Notes: a model not told the origin generated them from the sequence alone. DNA of 22,380 nucleotides from Nanobdellota archaeon (GCA_034722435.1 JAYENX010000002.1:1-22380); one strand, 5' to 3'. Positions 4,826 to 9,269 are shown, counted from the first letter of the stretch. Numbers and translations: made by a program.

Positions 4826-5460
4826 TTTTATTTCAATTAAGATAACTTACGCTCACTTTTCAATTGTTTTCCATATTTGGAATCATTAAATTCTTTTCAA
4901 TCAATAATCAGTATATGATCTTTGTTTTGTTATTTATGTATTATTTATATTGTATTCGTATAGTATTCACATTCTATTCTTATATTGATATATGTTGCAA
5001 TATATGTTTTGACTATATAAACCTAATCCAATTAGATGAATCTTAAAATTCCTTTATTTGATTCATCAATTACAGCCCTTGTACTCTTAGAATTCTGCAT
5101 TTTCCCATTAAAACAAACATTTTCCTTCATTTGAATTAATAAAATTTGTTATTATGTCGATAAAATATCTATAAATCCAGCACTTACAACCCTTCAAACC
5201 CTTGAAATCGCGTATTTAGTACTTTTTACGGTCATATTTTAATTTTATTCTGTTTGCGATAATTACTACGTTAATTATGTTAAAACCCTTGAATTAAGCC
5301 ATTTCAGACCCTATAACTGAAATATTTAGTTCATTACGTTCTTGTTAATTTCTCTATGAACCTCTATTTAACTCTCATTTTGGGTAATTTTATACTTACA
5401 ATCCTATAATTCCTCTTAATTTATCACAATTCGTGCTGTTATAAGCTAAAAACTTCTGTT

Positions 5461-5491
5461 TTAACTCTCACTTTCGATTTATTTTCATATA
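5461..5491 (+). repeat. 31-bp bipartite repeat, left copy L1
   Basis: TTAACTCTCACTTTCGATTTATTTTCATATA. Confidence 0.85.
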
Positions 5492-5629
5492 TCTGTATTA
5501 TTTATACATATCTGGCATCATATTTCTCGTAGTATGATATCTGTATACACTACTCATTTTCTCTTATTATTTTGATTTATACGTTATATATTGATTTTTA
5601 TTTATTTTCATATAGTTGAACTCACTTAA

Positions 5630-5660
5630 TTAACCCTCACTTTTTACTTATTTTCATATA
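5630..5660 (+). repeat. 31-bp bipartite repeat, left copy L2
   Basis: TTAACCCTCACTTTTTACTTATTTTCATATA. Its reverse complement matches 8889-8920 with 2 mismatches and 1 indel. Confidence 0.85.
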
Positions 5661-5758
5661 TGTGGTATATTGTATTAGTACTATTCTAATAGTGCCTAAT
5701 GATCTATTATTAAATTTGAATAGTTGTCTATTTATTTTCATATACTAGCACTCATTTA

Positions 5759-5789
5759 TTTACTCTCATTTCTGATTTGTTTTCATATA
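5759..5789 (+). repeat. 31-bp bipartite repeat, left copy L3
   Basis: TTTACTCTCATTTCTGATTTGTTTTCATATA, 26/31 identical to L1. Confidence 0.8.
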
Positions 5790-6104
5790 CTGGGGCGAGT
5801 ATGTATATTTTCTATAAACCTGTTCTATCTTATTGTAAGTACAACTGAATTTACCTATTCAATTATTTTCATATATGTCTCATCACTTTCAATTTTACCT
5901 TTATTTCCTCTAAAAACCCACTCTTTCGCGCAGAATATTTCTTGATTTTTTTTAAATGATTTTTATTTTTGCAAAATTTCCATTTGAAATTTTTTAACTA
6001 AGGGGTTTATTTCATTTAGAACTATTTGAATGTTTTTTCTTTATTTTTTTGTTACAAATTTCTTTATTTTTTTAAAATATTTCATCGTTTTTTCACTTTT
6101 TTTA

Positions 6105-6375
6105 TAGTCTTAGTCCTAGTCTCTATTAGTCTTAGGACTATCTTCTGTTAGTCTTATCTTAGTCTCATTTTGGGACTATCATTGCGCGCGAAAGCGCGCC
6201 TCGCGTATTGTATGTGTGTAATTCTTACTTTGTAGTCTTAGTCTCATTCCCTTTATAGTCTTAGTCCTATCTTGGGACTGTCTTAAGTGTGATAGTCTTA
6301 GTCCTATTAAGACTAAGACTGTTTTTTTATCGTCGGCGCGCGCGCATAGTCCTATCTGGGATTGAGACTAAGACT
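6105..6375. repeat. Dense AGTC(T/C) / TAGTCTTAGTC iteron-like array in both orientations
   Basis: 13 AGTC on + and 7 on - within about 270 bp. AGTCTTAGTC at 6106, 6234, 6257 and 6294, inverted at 6311-6320 and 6366-6375. Confidence 0.92.
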
Positions 6376-7062
6376 GGCGTTTTCAACCTGTTTTGAGAAG
6401 TATTTTTTTTCTTTTCCGATTCTTAAGAAACCTATTTTTCCGTCTCTTTCTACCTCTTGTAAAATCCTGTAGAACGAGCTTTTTGAGCATAATCCTTGCT
6501 CATCGACAACCATTTCTTTCATTTGTAATCCTGATATTTCTTCATACTTTTGAATCAGTGAAACGATCAAATTTTTCACATATTCTTTACTATTTCTTGT
6601 GACTGTTTTTAGCACTTTTTGTTGTAGTGCAGTTTGCTGAATTTTGGGTTTTCCATAGGAAACGCCTTTCATTTTTTCTTCCATTATTTTTAGCTTTTCA
6701 GCCATATCCTGGAGAGGATAATGACCATCAATTAACTGCCTTATTTCATCATTTGTAATTGGTCTTTGGTTTTCTAGACCTTCTAATCTCATATTGACTC
6801 TTTGCAGTTCATTATGTGGATAGTGAGACTTATGCTCTAAGTCTAAAATTTTAGAATCAATCCTTTGTATTTCATAGGGTAAATGTGCAAATTGTTCAAG
6901 CCTTCTAAGCCTTTCATCATGCTCTTTATGCTGGCTATGGAAATATTGAATCCATTCACCTACGTTAGTGATATCATTTTTGATTTTAATGAACGCAGAT
7001 TTAAGAAAATTCTGGAATCTATTCCATCTATGTACATCAATATGTTTATCTCTCCACCCCAT
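6352..7062 (-). CDS. Coiled-coil protein with C-terminal winged helix-turn-helix (unknown function)
   Basis: LKSAFIKIKNDI motif, heptad-rich middle, and C-terminal KNLIVSLIQKY...SKSSFYRILQEVE..GKIGFLRIGKEKKYF wHTH pattern. Start placed at ATG 7062 (ORF track: 7104) because TTTATAAA sits at 7085-7092. Confidence 0.85.
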   Translation of the reverse strand: MGWRDKHIDVHRWNRFQNFLKSAFIKIKNDITNVGEWIQYFHSQHKEHDERLRRLEQFAHLPYEIQRIDSKILDLEHKSHYPHNELQRVNMRLEGLENQRPITNDEIRQLIDGHYPLQDMAEKLKIMEEKMKGVSYGKPKIQQTALQQKVLKTVTRNSKEYVKNLIVSLIQKYEEISGLQMKEMVVDEQGLCSKSSFYRILQEVERDGKIGFLRIGKEKKYFSKQVENASLSLNPR

Positions 7063-7148
7063 GTTTTTAAAAAACTCTTTTTTCTTTATAAATCTTTTCA
7101 TCATCTATATTGAAAAATTATTTAAACCAGCATCATAAATATGAAAAT
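7063..7148. promoter_or_regulatory. Back-to-back divergent promoters
   Basis: TTTATAAA at 7085-7092 (about 23-30 nt before ATG 7062) and A-rich BRE plus TTTAAA at 7121-7126 (about 23-28 nt before ATG 7149). The spacing fits leaderless transcripts. Confidence 0.6.
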
Positions 7149-7658: not shown

Positions 7659-7774
7659 TTACAATTTTTGCAATTTGAATTTCTAATCTTCAATCAAAAA
7701 TCTAATTTATTTTTTTTCAAAAAAATTTAAAAAATTATTGAAAATTTTTACAAAAATCACAATTTTTTTATACT

Positions 7775-7802
7775 AGTTCGCACAATATACATTGTGTGTA
7801 CC
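7775..7802. other. dif-like Xer recombination site (11-6-11)
   Basis: Minus strand GGTACACACAA-TGTATA-TTGTGCGAACT. The arms are 8/11 inverted to each other, the site is 21/28 identical to E. coli dif GGTGCGCATAATGTATATTATGTTAAAT with an identical spacer, and it lies 50 bp upstream of the xer ORF. Confidence 0.75.
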
Positions 7803-7852
7803 TTTGACTATATGAAAAGAAATATACTTTGCTTTTTTACCTAAATTAGGGT

Positions 7853-8701
7853 TTGAAAGGCCGGGCGTTCACAACAAATCAGGTGATCAATTTCAGTAAA
7901 AAAATTAAGCAATTGGAAACAGAATTGAAGTTGCGCGGATTTAGTAATCTAACCATCAAAAACTATCTTCATTACAATCAAAATTTCCTTAATTTCTCAA
8001 AAAAAGATATTGAAACTGTTGAAGAATCTGATTTAAAGGAGTATTTGGCATTCTTAATATCTGATCGTAAGCTTAAACCAGCGACTGTAAATCTTGCAAG
8101 ATGTAGTCTGAAATTCTTTTATGATGATGTGTTGCAAAAAAATCTTTTTGCCAGAATCAAGACTGTAAAATCTGAAAAAAAGATTCCTGTTGTACTTACG
8201 CCTCAAGAAATTCAAAAACTTTTAGCAGAGATTAAAAATTCTCGGAATCGACTCATGATTGCGTTTATTTACGCTTCAGGGTTACGTGTTTCAGAGCTTG
8301 TAAACCTTAGATATCAAGACATTGATTTAAATGAACGTGTTGCCACAATAAAGGCTGGTAAAGGCAAAAAAGACCGTTTAGTGATCCTAAGCCCTAAACT
8401 ATGCAGAAAGTTGCTAAAAACTGCTAAAAATGCAAATAAACAAGATCTTGTTTTTCCAATAAGTAAACGGTATGTTCAAAAAATAGTCTCAAATGCTGCT
8501 AAAAAAGCAAAGATTCAGAAGCGTGTTTTTTGTCATGCTTTACGCTCAAGTTTTGCAACTCATTTACTTGAACGAGGTACGGACATTCGCGTTATTCAAG
8601 AGTTACTCGGACATGCTAATTTATCGACGACACAGATATACACAAAAGTAAGTAAAGAATTCATAAAAACTGTGCGTTCTCCGCTTGATTATTTGCGATA
8701 G
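7853..8701 (+). CDS. xerA: XerA/XerD-like tyrosine recombinase
   Basis: N-terminal SAM-like domain; catalytic R (SGLRVSE), K (GKGKKDR), HxxR (HALR), H (LLGH) and Y (TQIYT). True start is uncertain (TTG 7853, or GTG 7883 or later). Confidence 0.9.
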   Translation: MKGRAFTTNQVINFSKKIKQLETELKLRGFSNLTIKNYLHYNQNFLNFSKKDIETVEESDLKEYLAFLISDRKLKPATVNLARCSLKFFYDDVLQKNLFARIKTVKSEKKIPVVLTPQEIQKLLAEIKNSRNRLMIAFIYASGLRVSELVNLRYQDIDLNERVATIKAGKGKKDRLVILSPKLCRKLLKTAKNANKQDLVFPISKRYVQKIVSNAAKKAKIQKRVFCHALRSSFATHLLERGTDIRVIQELLGHANLSTTQIYTKVSKEFIKTVRSPLDYLR

Positions 8702-8888
8702 TTTTACTAATTCACGTCGATAGATTCCTTTATTCTATGTCTATAAAAACACCTCAAAATCTTTCTAAATTTTTTAATTAGTTTCTTTATTGAAAACAAG
8801 TGGAAATATTAATCCTGCTACTTTTAGGTAGTTCTATTTTGCTTTAATTTTTGCTCAAAAATATTTGGCAATTATTTTTATTAATTAC

Positions 8889-8920
8889 TATATTGAAAAT
8901 AAGCAAAAAGTGAGAGTTAA
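8889..8920 (-). repeat. 32-bp bipartite repeat, right inverted copy R1
   Basis: TATATTGAAAATAAGCAAAAAGTGAGAGTTAA, 29/32 to the reverse complement of L2 and 27/32 to that of L1. Confidence 0.85.
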
Positions 8921-9056
8921 TTTTTTAGCATTTTTTTCCATAGATAAAATAAAAAACACATTCTCTGTTTTGATACCAAAAAGGGGCGTTTTTAGATGCA
9001 AATTCTGTAAAAGTGATAATTCATAAAATTTCAGATTTATGTAATTCGACAAAAAT

Positions 9057-9088
9057 TGTATTGAAAATAATCAATTAGTGAGAATTAG
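9057..9088 (-). repeat. 32-bp bipartite repeat, right inverted copy R2
   Basis: TGTATTGAAAATAATCAATTAGTGAGAATTAG, 26/32 to R1. Confidence 0.7.
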
Positions 9089-9269
9089 GTGTTAGGCACT
9101 AAAAAATTACTTGTATTTGTCGTACTCTAAAATGGTTCTTATCGTCGAAAATGTGTTATTTTTGGGTCTTTAATTTTAATACTATAATGGGCTGATTCTT
9201 TTAATTTATTTAGTATGAAAACAATTCCCTAAATTTTATTGAATAAACTGTTTTATAGAAAAGTGAGTC

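Follow-up and report, generated by a model that had tools for sequence, protein, structure and literature searches.

Plasmid centromeres such as parC/ParR of R1 and tubC/TubR of pBtoxis are built from phased short repeats and a small adaptor protein, which in the case of TubR is a winged-helix protein. The RTP/Ter fork trap of Bacillus subtilis joins opposed polar sites to the gene of a winged-helix protein that forms dimers through a long helix, and an archaeal oriC comprises inverted origin recognition boxes (ORBs), an AT-rich unwinding element and orc1/cdc6. To our knowledge, only a few model species have a defined chromosomal centromere or Smc-positioning site. The resolution of chromosome dimers by the archaeal XerA/dif system was described by Cortez et al. 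(2010; PMC2958812). In Thermococcus kodakarensis, an Smc boundary requires the 1.9-kb intergenic region that contains dif, and this region is also sufficient for it; the boundary is set up via the winged-helix protein TrmBL2, and neither dif nor XerA is needed (Yamaura et al. 2025; PMC11840125). Here we describe a module of ordered repeats in a stretch of 22,380 nt from a Nanobdellota archaeon (JAYENX010000002.1; the window, below), together with the genes of two putative DNA-binding proteins, P1 and P2, the recombinase gene xerA and a dif-like site. The module is chromosomal, vertically inherited and present once per genome in Woesearchaeales. Literature searches of published work found no description of it.

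The window is the entire contig C2 of the assembly G000 (60 contigs, 1.30 Mb, 32% GC), and close homologues of its proteins carry the label Candidatus Woesearchaeota. We compared it with 41 relatives, and a profile survey of the order Woesearchaeales covered 201 genomes. Two of the relatives, G001 and G002, belong to the same family as the window genome and are both unpublished; G018 is a complete relative in a single contig of 1,301,350 bp. Three further unpublished genomes (G113, G122 and G133) contribute to tallies alone.

Repeats and genes of the module

The two longest stretches without coding sequence in the window, 4826-6351 (1526 bp) and 8702-9269 (568 bp), are far apart in length from the next one (280 bp) and enclose three genes, P1 on the minus strand and P2 and xerA on the plus strand. 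Going from left to right, the left gap contains composite repeats on the plus strand, a T-tract block and an array of heptamers whose end overlaps the final codons of P1; the right gap contains the composite repeat in the opposite orientation and then two copies of its first box. The composite element is about 31 nt long and consists of the boxA core CTCTCACTTTT, 4 nt, and boxB TTATTTTCATATA. The features are:

4419-4439, plus strand: boxA-like copy with 2 mismatches to the composite element, antisense within the coding sequence of a methyltransferase
4850-5875, plus strand (every copy): left outer-repeat field, spacing about 130-170 nt
4850-4872, plus strand: degenerate copy of the left field
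5461-5491, 5630-5660 and 5759-5789, plus strand: full elements (boxA and boxB) of the left field
5602-5614, 5732-5744 and 5863-5875, plus strand: boxB alone, left field
5931-6103 (173 bp), plus strand: T-tract block, 16.8% GC, 58% T, nine runs of T5-8
6105-6370, both orientations: heptamer array, 16 copies of TAGTCYYA, overlapping the last codons of P1
6352-7104, minus strand: P1, open reading frame (ORF) of 250 residues, predicted coiled coil and C-terminal winged helix
7149-7658, plus strand: P2, 169 residues, predicted 67-residue N-terminal helix and MarR/ArsR-like winged helix
7775-7802, plus strand: dif-like site of 28 nt, 11-6-11 with imperfect inverted arms, about 80 nt upstream of xerA
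7809-7821, minus strand: boxB copy, 6 nt from the dif-like site, position matched in G001 and G002
7853-8701, plus strand: xerA, tyrosine recombinase; the ORF starts with TTG at 7853, and GTG at 7883 is the start used in G002
8890-9557, minus strand (every copy): right outer-repeat field
8890-8922 and 9059-9090, minus strand: full elements of the right field
9259-9269 and 9547-9557, minus strand: boxA-only copies of the right field

An earlier reading, made from the DNA sequence alone (the sequence-only reading, below), had described this cassette with its two long non-coding stretches of about 1.5 and 0.57 kb, and had placed it at 5340-9090. The stretches are as long as it said and repeats do lie within these bounds, but the repeat field runs beyond them, and its true extent is 4419 to 9557.

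We compared the repeat counts in the window with those in 100 shuffled sequences. With at most 3 mismatches, the composite element has 7 matches (0.66 in the shuffles, none of which reaches 7), five of them on the plus strand (4419-5785) and two on the minus strand (8894-9082). The best inverted pair of outer repeats is 29 nt long and 93% complementary. The heptamer TAGTCYYA occurs 17 times where 3.4 occurrences are expected (no shuffled sequence reaches 17), and 16 of the 17 fall within 6105-6370, with spacings of 6, 11, 16-17 and 22 nt. The inverted outer repeats, the T-tract DNA and the array that the sequence-only reading had seen are thus present, the counts being far above those in shuffles. 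Within the 1.3-Mb assembly both repeat classes keep to contig C2, and the densest 400-bp bin holds 16 heptamers, with at most 2 in any bin elsewhere. BoxA (read on the opposite strand) and the heptamers share the core TGAGA. The T-tract block lies to one side of the boxA field rather than between its inverted groups.

Two side observations concern these repeats. On contig C17 of the same assembly, boxA and ORB-like matches fall in coding DNA. The array is interrupted by two GC-rich islands (6184-6200 and 6330-6345), one of which is a perfect GCGCGC-GAAA-GCGCGC hairpin, and a GC-rich island resembling those of the window is present in G002.

P1 and P2 have the same predicted fold, a long N-terminal coiled coil followed by a C-terminal winged helix, as had been proposed for this divergent pair. 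The probable start of P1 is Met15 at 7062, as read from the sequence and from an alignment of homologues, 23-30 nt past a TATA-like octamer at 7085-7092; a TATA-like box also precedes P2 (7118-7126), so that the boxes of both genes lie 23-31 nt 5' of the start codons. Neither protein has a Pfam family, P2 giving a sub-threshold match to HTH_11. Searches of PDB sequences with P1 and P2 profiles returned only coiled-coil noise and generic helix-turn-helix matches, and with Foldseek and VIA-align many winged-helix families were tied for both proteins, none of them specific. The winged helices of both proteins are MarR/ArsR/PadR-like, and RTP of B. subtilis is among the weak fold matches of P1 (E about 0.02). 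Neither protein has a Pfam match to TrmB, and Atlas neighbours that carry TrmB domains score only 0.86-0.87. The recognition helix of P1 is invariant in 13 aligned homologues; that of P2 is variable, like the second box. We also considered whether P1 and P2 are paralogues and rejected this as unsupported, given that BLASTP and hhalign align just an N-terminal motif of 9-26 residues (hhalign probability 16%). There is no second P1 in the window genome, and no relative of P1 was found on IMG/VR contigs.

The recombinase passes the equivalog cut-off of the NCBIfam model recomb_XerA_Arch (236.1 bits, cut-off 220), so its earlier naming as xerA stands. It is the best among four integrase-family matches in the window genome, has the Pfam domain Phage_integrase and a SAM-like N-terminal domain, and its translation, read by eye and without a reference alignment, contains stretches of the type that carries the catalytic residues (R, K, H-x-x-R, H, Y). 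The dif-like site proposed by the sequence-only reading also exists and is unique, but its position had to be corrected to 7775-7802. Its arms are complementary in 8 of 11 positions, and the 28-mer is unique in the window genome even if 6 mismatches are allowed. G001 and G002 have near-identical sites; in G002 the site stays upstream of xerA despite the inversion of xerA relative to P2, and in all three family genomes (window, G001 and G002) a boxB lies a few nucleotides from it. Sites of the same architecture are found upstream of xerA in G020, G032 and G174. We regard 7775-7802 as a candidate dif for recombination by XerA.

Across the order, Xer-like recombinases form two groups. Those linked to the module are 49-59% identical to XerA of the window; members of the other group are 37-46% identical and lie very often within 1-2 kb of contig ends, which suggests that they are integrases of repeated or mobile DNA.

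Conservation in Woesearchaeales

P2 is present in 35 of the 41 relatives and P1, with a single-sequence query, in 25 of the 41. With the P1 profile, 109 of the 201 genomes give a match, which is strong in 60; P1 was detected in about half of the genomes sampled across families. The order PAC2, xerA, P2, P1, repeats, methyltransferase, rpoL, AMMECR1 recurs across families, with in-place flips of P1, P2 or xerA in some genomes, and the neighbours that match window genes in the relatives are housekeeping genes. In 29 of the 60 genomes with a strong P1 (one of them the unpublished G133), xerA lies within 6 kb. G001 and G002 keep boxA, boxB, the T-rich block, the heptamers and the dif-like site, and their spacers have diverged; the elements of the left field recur in both at the equivalent place.

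The 11-nt boxA core is kept across the order, and the second box differs by family. An exact match occurs about twice per genome, and approximately 22 of the 41 relatives have one no more than 5 kb from P1/P2 or P1/P2-like genes; for example, three of the four exact copies in G018 sit at the module locus. Among about 19 inspected loci, 10 have boxA groups that face inwards, towards the P1/P2 core or a P1-like gene; these are the loci of the window, of four relatives that have an inverted right-hand group (G017, G003, G015 and G032), and of five in which boxA converges on a P1-like gene or a short ORF (G004, G028, G038, G016 and G021). In G021 the ORF between the convergent groups (L111 4218-4454, on G021:C14) has 78 residues and consists of a coiled coil only, with the N-terminal motif of P1 and P2; no full P1 was found in this genome, and its P2 is on a different contig.

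BoxA copies embedded in the methyltransferase gene are found at homologous positions in G020, G003, G034, G017 and G174, which are genomes with a short gap. The embedded boxA is read in two frames and gives KSES/KSET or x-KVR-x. Since the copies stand at homologous codons of a coding sequence and in two frames, they point to selection at the level of DNA within a housekeeping gene. Such sites lie at 4419-4439 in the window and at L042 8486-8905, L044 8073-8524 and L040 5133-5450.

G001 and G018 likewise have a T-rich block that separates boxA from the heptamers and is comparable to that of the window. In G018 the densest 400-bp bin holds 13 heptamer cores, with at most 3 elsewhere. The arrays of the relatives consist of AGTCCCA or ATTCCCA with a phasing of 10-12 nt (e.g. 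G174, G017 and G020), and in several families they are reduced to 300-470 bp and extend over coding DNA. In every case the array adjoins P1, whatever the direction of the gene. In both the window and G018 it stands on the 3' side of P1, and in G018 the next gene also has its 3' end turned to it; in G020, G003 and G034 it lies within the promoter region that separates P1 from the methyltransferase gene. Homologous gene pairs without adjacent repeats, which the sequence-only reading had named as evidence that would speak against it, did not turn up. Two genomes, G027 and G030, keep P2 and have no match to P1, no boxA cluster and no heptamers; thus, the arrays go with P1.

Furthermore, four P1 paralogues in other genomes have phased heptamers directly after the gene, with a spacing of about 11 nt and the same GAGAC core. 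Since the paralogues carry the same phased heptamers after their genes, it is most likely P1 that binds the array. These loci (L121 5325-6080, L122 4690-5446, L123 5200-6260 and L124 4500-5700) are from other Woesearchaeales. Their neighbours are giant ORFs of 1023-1595 residues, in which the sole recognisable domains are Ig-like, in housekeeping contexts. Full canonical ORB elements are found beside three of the four, and these may be Orc1-binding sites for gene control, or small replication-linked elements.

In summary, the profile survey, the shared synteny and the single-copy clusters support the view, already taken by the sequence-only reading, of a lineage-specific module with two uncharacterised DNA-binding proteins, which is not mobile cargo. 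The genes around it in the window are housekeeping genes, as stated before. No transposase, orc1 or parA family was matched among the scanned window ORFs, in agreement with the earlier claims that phage or transposase cargo and genes for Orc1/Cdc6 or ParA are absent, and the sole integrase-family match is xerA. No RNA gene was found in 4800-9700 by Rfam (E <= 1) or ARAGORN. The gene smc lies at 13639-17133; its nearness to the module, pointed out earlier, is real in the window but not conserved. We therefore rejected a linkage to smc, which in G018 is separated from the module by 530 kb, and regard the closeness in the window as incidental.

Farther out in the window, two genes of the RNase HII family (17216-18046 and 19957-20625, both on the minus strand) lie 2 kb apart just past smc. 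The first is longer by about 90 residues at its N terminus, and between the two there are three ORFs without a Pfam family. At 22114-22230 on the plus strand, next to tRNA-Met (21944-22018), a 117-nt Rfam tRNA match (45 bits) that ARAGORN does not call is probably an intron-containing tRNA.

Position relative to the replication origin

Ordered repeats and an AT-rich block tempt one to see a replication origin, as the sequence-only reading did when it proposed an origin and/or a centromere, and the module corrects this misreading as regards the origin: it is not an Orc1 replication origin. A centromere is a possible role. The sole orc1/cdc6 of the window genome is on contig C28, where it starts about 240 nt from the contig end. 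A canonical ORB (dyad and G-run) stands upstream of it at C28:137-157, 137 nt from the contig end. The assembly breaks within this presumed oriC (C28:1-420, L001), so the remaining ORBs and the unwinding element are probably unassembled. In both G018 and G174, ORBs and an AT-rich stretch lie upstream of orc1; in G018 a stretch of about 450 bp is visibly almost without G and C. No conserved copy of an ORB was found in the module. One ORB-like dyad inside P1 (6651-6662) was examined and dismissed as a chance match, as it has no G-run and is missing from G001.

The complete genome G018 allows the skew to be read along the whole chromosome. One of its strands has a net excess of 77,658 A over T and of 13,941 G over C (long ORFs, 607 versus 529); because of this whole-circle excess, cumulative curves need detrending before they are read. 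The detrended cumulative GC skew forms a single V with its minimum at 761 kb, and orc1 lies at 765 kb. The minimum falls at 781 kb in the curve of third codon positions and at 780 kb in the strand-corrected curve, and the maximum at 146-168 kb. The module, at 432-438 kb, is on the falling limb, 329 kb from orc1 and about 91 degrees from the origin, and no inflection is seen there in the raw, third-codon-position or strand-corrected curves. It follows that the module of G018 is neither the main origin nor the terminus. The lack of a skew inflection nearby had been named beforehand as a finding that would tell against the original proposal, and in G018, the sole clean genome, it counts against an origin. 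In the four genomes that have both on one contig, the distance between module and orc1 is 190-360 kb.

Possible functions and known systems

What, then, does the module do? In our view the best explanation, to which we give a probability of roughly 45%, is that it is a nucleoprotein platform of P1 and P2 that marks the xerA/dif region, comparable to plasmid centromeres or to the Smc boundary that surrounds dif in Thermococcus. Dimers or oligomers of P1 would load cooperatively on the phased heptamers of the GAGAC/GGGAC type beside their own gene, as the paralogues appear to do. The dispersed boxA sites would extend or bound the complex over 1-5 kb and into the methyltransferase gene, and the family-specific boxB could be read by P2, or by P1. 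Together with the T-tract block, which would be intrinsically bent, the nucleoprotein structure might organise the DNA around dif, where it could block or position Smc, provide a segregation handle or lend accessory architecture to XerA synapsis; it would probably also feed back on the two back-to-back promoters. The scale would suit such a structure, the window having, over 2.1 kb, no fewer than 12 box copies in addition to the 16 heptamers.

Several observations weigh against a platform of this kind. The boxA convergence is missing or mixed in G018, G025, G034 and G040. Beside xerA of G018 we found no dif-like site, a palindrome scan giving nothing convincing near the gene, and smc is 530 kb from the module in this genome. 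XerA is linked in just about half of the genomes, and G027 keeps P2 and yields no XerA at E <= 1e-30. The conservation of boxB and dif at the level of the family depends on the unpublished G001 and G002. No gene for a partner nucleoside triphosphatase, a kleisin or a ParB-like protein is linked to the module; the sole strong ParA/MinD-type match of the window genome is on contig C50, and scpA is on C56. We only infer, from sequence, which protein reads which repeat. Finally, the P1 paralogues adjoin giant surface-protein genes as ordinary local regulators do, which equally fits a role in transcription only.

Potentially, P1 and P2 are just such local transcription factors, and the array and the boxes are operators for their own promoters, for xerA and/or for the methyltransferase-rpoL operon, with no part in chromosome mechanics. 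We consider this the main rival, possible if on balance unlikely, and the P1 paralogues strengthen it. It would agree with the MarR/ArsR/PadR-like winged helices of both proteins, the TATA-like boxes in front of both start codons, the arrays of G020, G003 and G034 in a promoter region, the persistence of P2 without any repeats in G027 and G030, and the paralogues whose 3'-adjacent heptamers stand upstream of giant surface-protein genes in housekeeping contexts. On the other hand, the scale is unusual for operators: the sites extend over 1-5 kb, converge from two sides, and lie within coding sequence and downstream of PAC2. The window and G018 both have the array on the 3' side of P1 (in G018 the next gene, too, ends towards it), and an 11-nt core kept across the order in one cluster per genome is more than a local regulator usually shows. 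Doubtful to a similar degree is the idea of a chromosome-mechanics element of a new design, in which polar boxA sites would converge on an array coated by winged-helix proteins, either to position or block Smc and serve as a segregation handle beside dif in the manner of CTCF, or to form an Orc1-independent second origin with P1 and P2 as initiators. The second-origin version, with boxA and the array recruiting P1/P2 and the T-tract block unwinding on the model of Sulfolobus oriC3 and its winged-helix initiator WhiP, is by itself quite improbable. It would account for inverted polar sites and an AT-rich block beside winged-helix genes and for the canonical ORBs that adjoin arrays of P1 paralogues elsewhere. 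It would also suit the 732-kb contig of G174 (G174:C7), where there is no V at orc1 and a broad skew trough starts about 10 kb from the module, but this contig is half a genome and its skew cannot be detrended. Against it stand the single V of G018 with its minimum at orc1 and without inflection at the module, the lack of a conserved ORB (the dyad within P1 being a chance match), the arrays of 300-470 bp that overlap coding DNA in several families, and the T-tract block itself, which at 173 bp and 17% GC is much weaker than the stretch of about 450 bp at orc1 in G018.

Two further accounts deserve less credit. A plasmid or viral maintenance module that is decaying or domesticated, with little present function, would explain the plasmid-like combination of a tyrosine recombinase with two small genes for DNA-binding proteins and with arrays that resemble iterons, as well as the local flips of xerA, P1 and P2 between genomes. 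It is very unlikely, in that the module keeps the same chromosomal position among housekeeping genes in many families, its motifs are kept where the spacers have diverged, no relative of P1 was found on IMG/VR contigs and the recombinase is an orthologue of XerA. Least probable of all, and hardly credible, is a fork trap or terminus, with boxA as polar Ter-like sites around dif and P1 as an RTP/Tus-like terminator. This would fit the opposed polar groups around xerA/dif and the gene of a dimeric winged-helix protein beside the sites, with the weak fold match to RTP. However, dozens of unrelated winged-helix proteins match equally well, and the skew maximum of G018 is about 270 kb away from its xerA, with no sign change at the module.

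Whichever reading holds, chromosome organisation and segregation in DPANN and other archaea are largely obscure, and the locus offers concrete, conserved, single-copy cis sites with two candidate binding proteins. The order is known from metagenomes only; recombinant proteins make the question testable, as do the hundreds of complete Nanobdellota genomes that are now appearing (bioRxiv 10.64898/2026.05.13.725050).

How does the module compare with the systems named at the outset? With archaeal XerA/dif it shares a single XerA-type recombinase and a unique 11-6-11 site with imperfect arms, and its repeats beside the dif-like site recall the conserved inverted repeats that flank dif in Thermococcales (PMC2958812). 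It differs in that its candidate dif lies directly upstream of xerA, as in XerS/difSL and in haloarchaea, where other systems have it at a distant terminus, and in that both belong to a much more extensive field of ordered repeats that comes with two winged-helix genes of its own. In G018 this locus is about 91 degrees from the origin. The Smc boundary of Thermococcus would be similar in that a large intergenic region beside dif forms a landmark from its own sequence, independently of XerA, via a filament-forming winged-helix protein, and the window genome encodes Smc and ScpA. Unlike TrmBL2, however, P1 and P2 are not of the TrmB family, and the module has discrete sites, with phasing and polarity, in place of a general property of DNA structure.

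The likeness to an archaeal oriC consists in inverted polar repeats and an AT-rich block near genes of DNA-binding proteins; the repeats of the module are not ORBs, though, the ORB and orc1 are elsewhere, and there is no skew inflection in G018. As in RTP/Ter, opposed polar sites stand beside a winged-helix gene, whereas the module lies off the skew-defined terminus in G018 and the similarity in fold is generic. With plasmid centromeres, finally, the module shares short direct repeats that have a phase of 10-12 bp and adjoin the gene whose product presumably coats them. It differs from them in that no motor gene for ParM, TubZ or ParA is linked, in being chromosomal, and in its extra polar boxA sites over kilobases. 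By analogy, these centromeres of phased repeats would be its closest mechanical counterpart.

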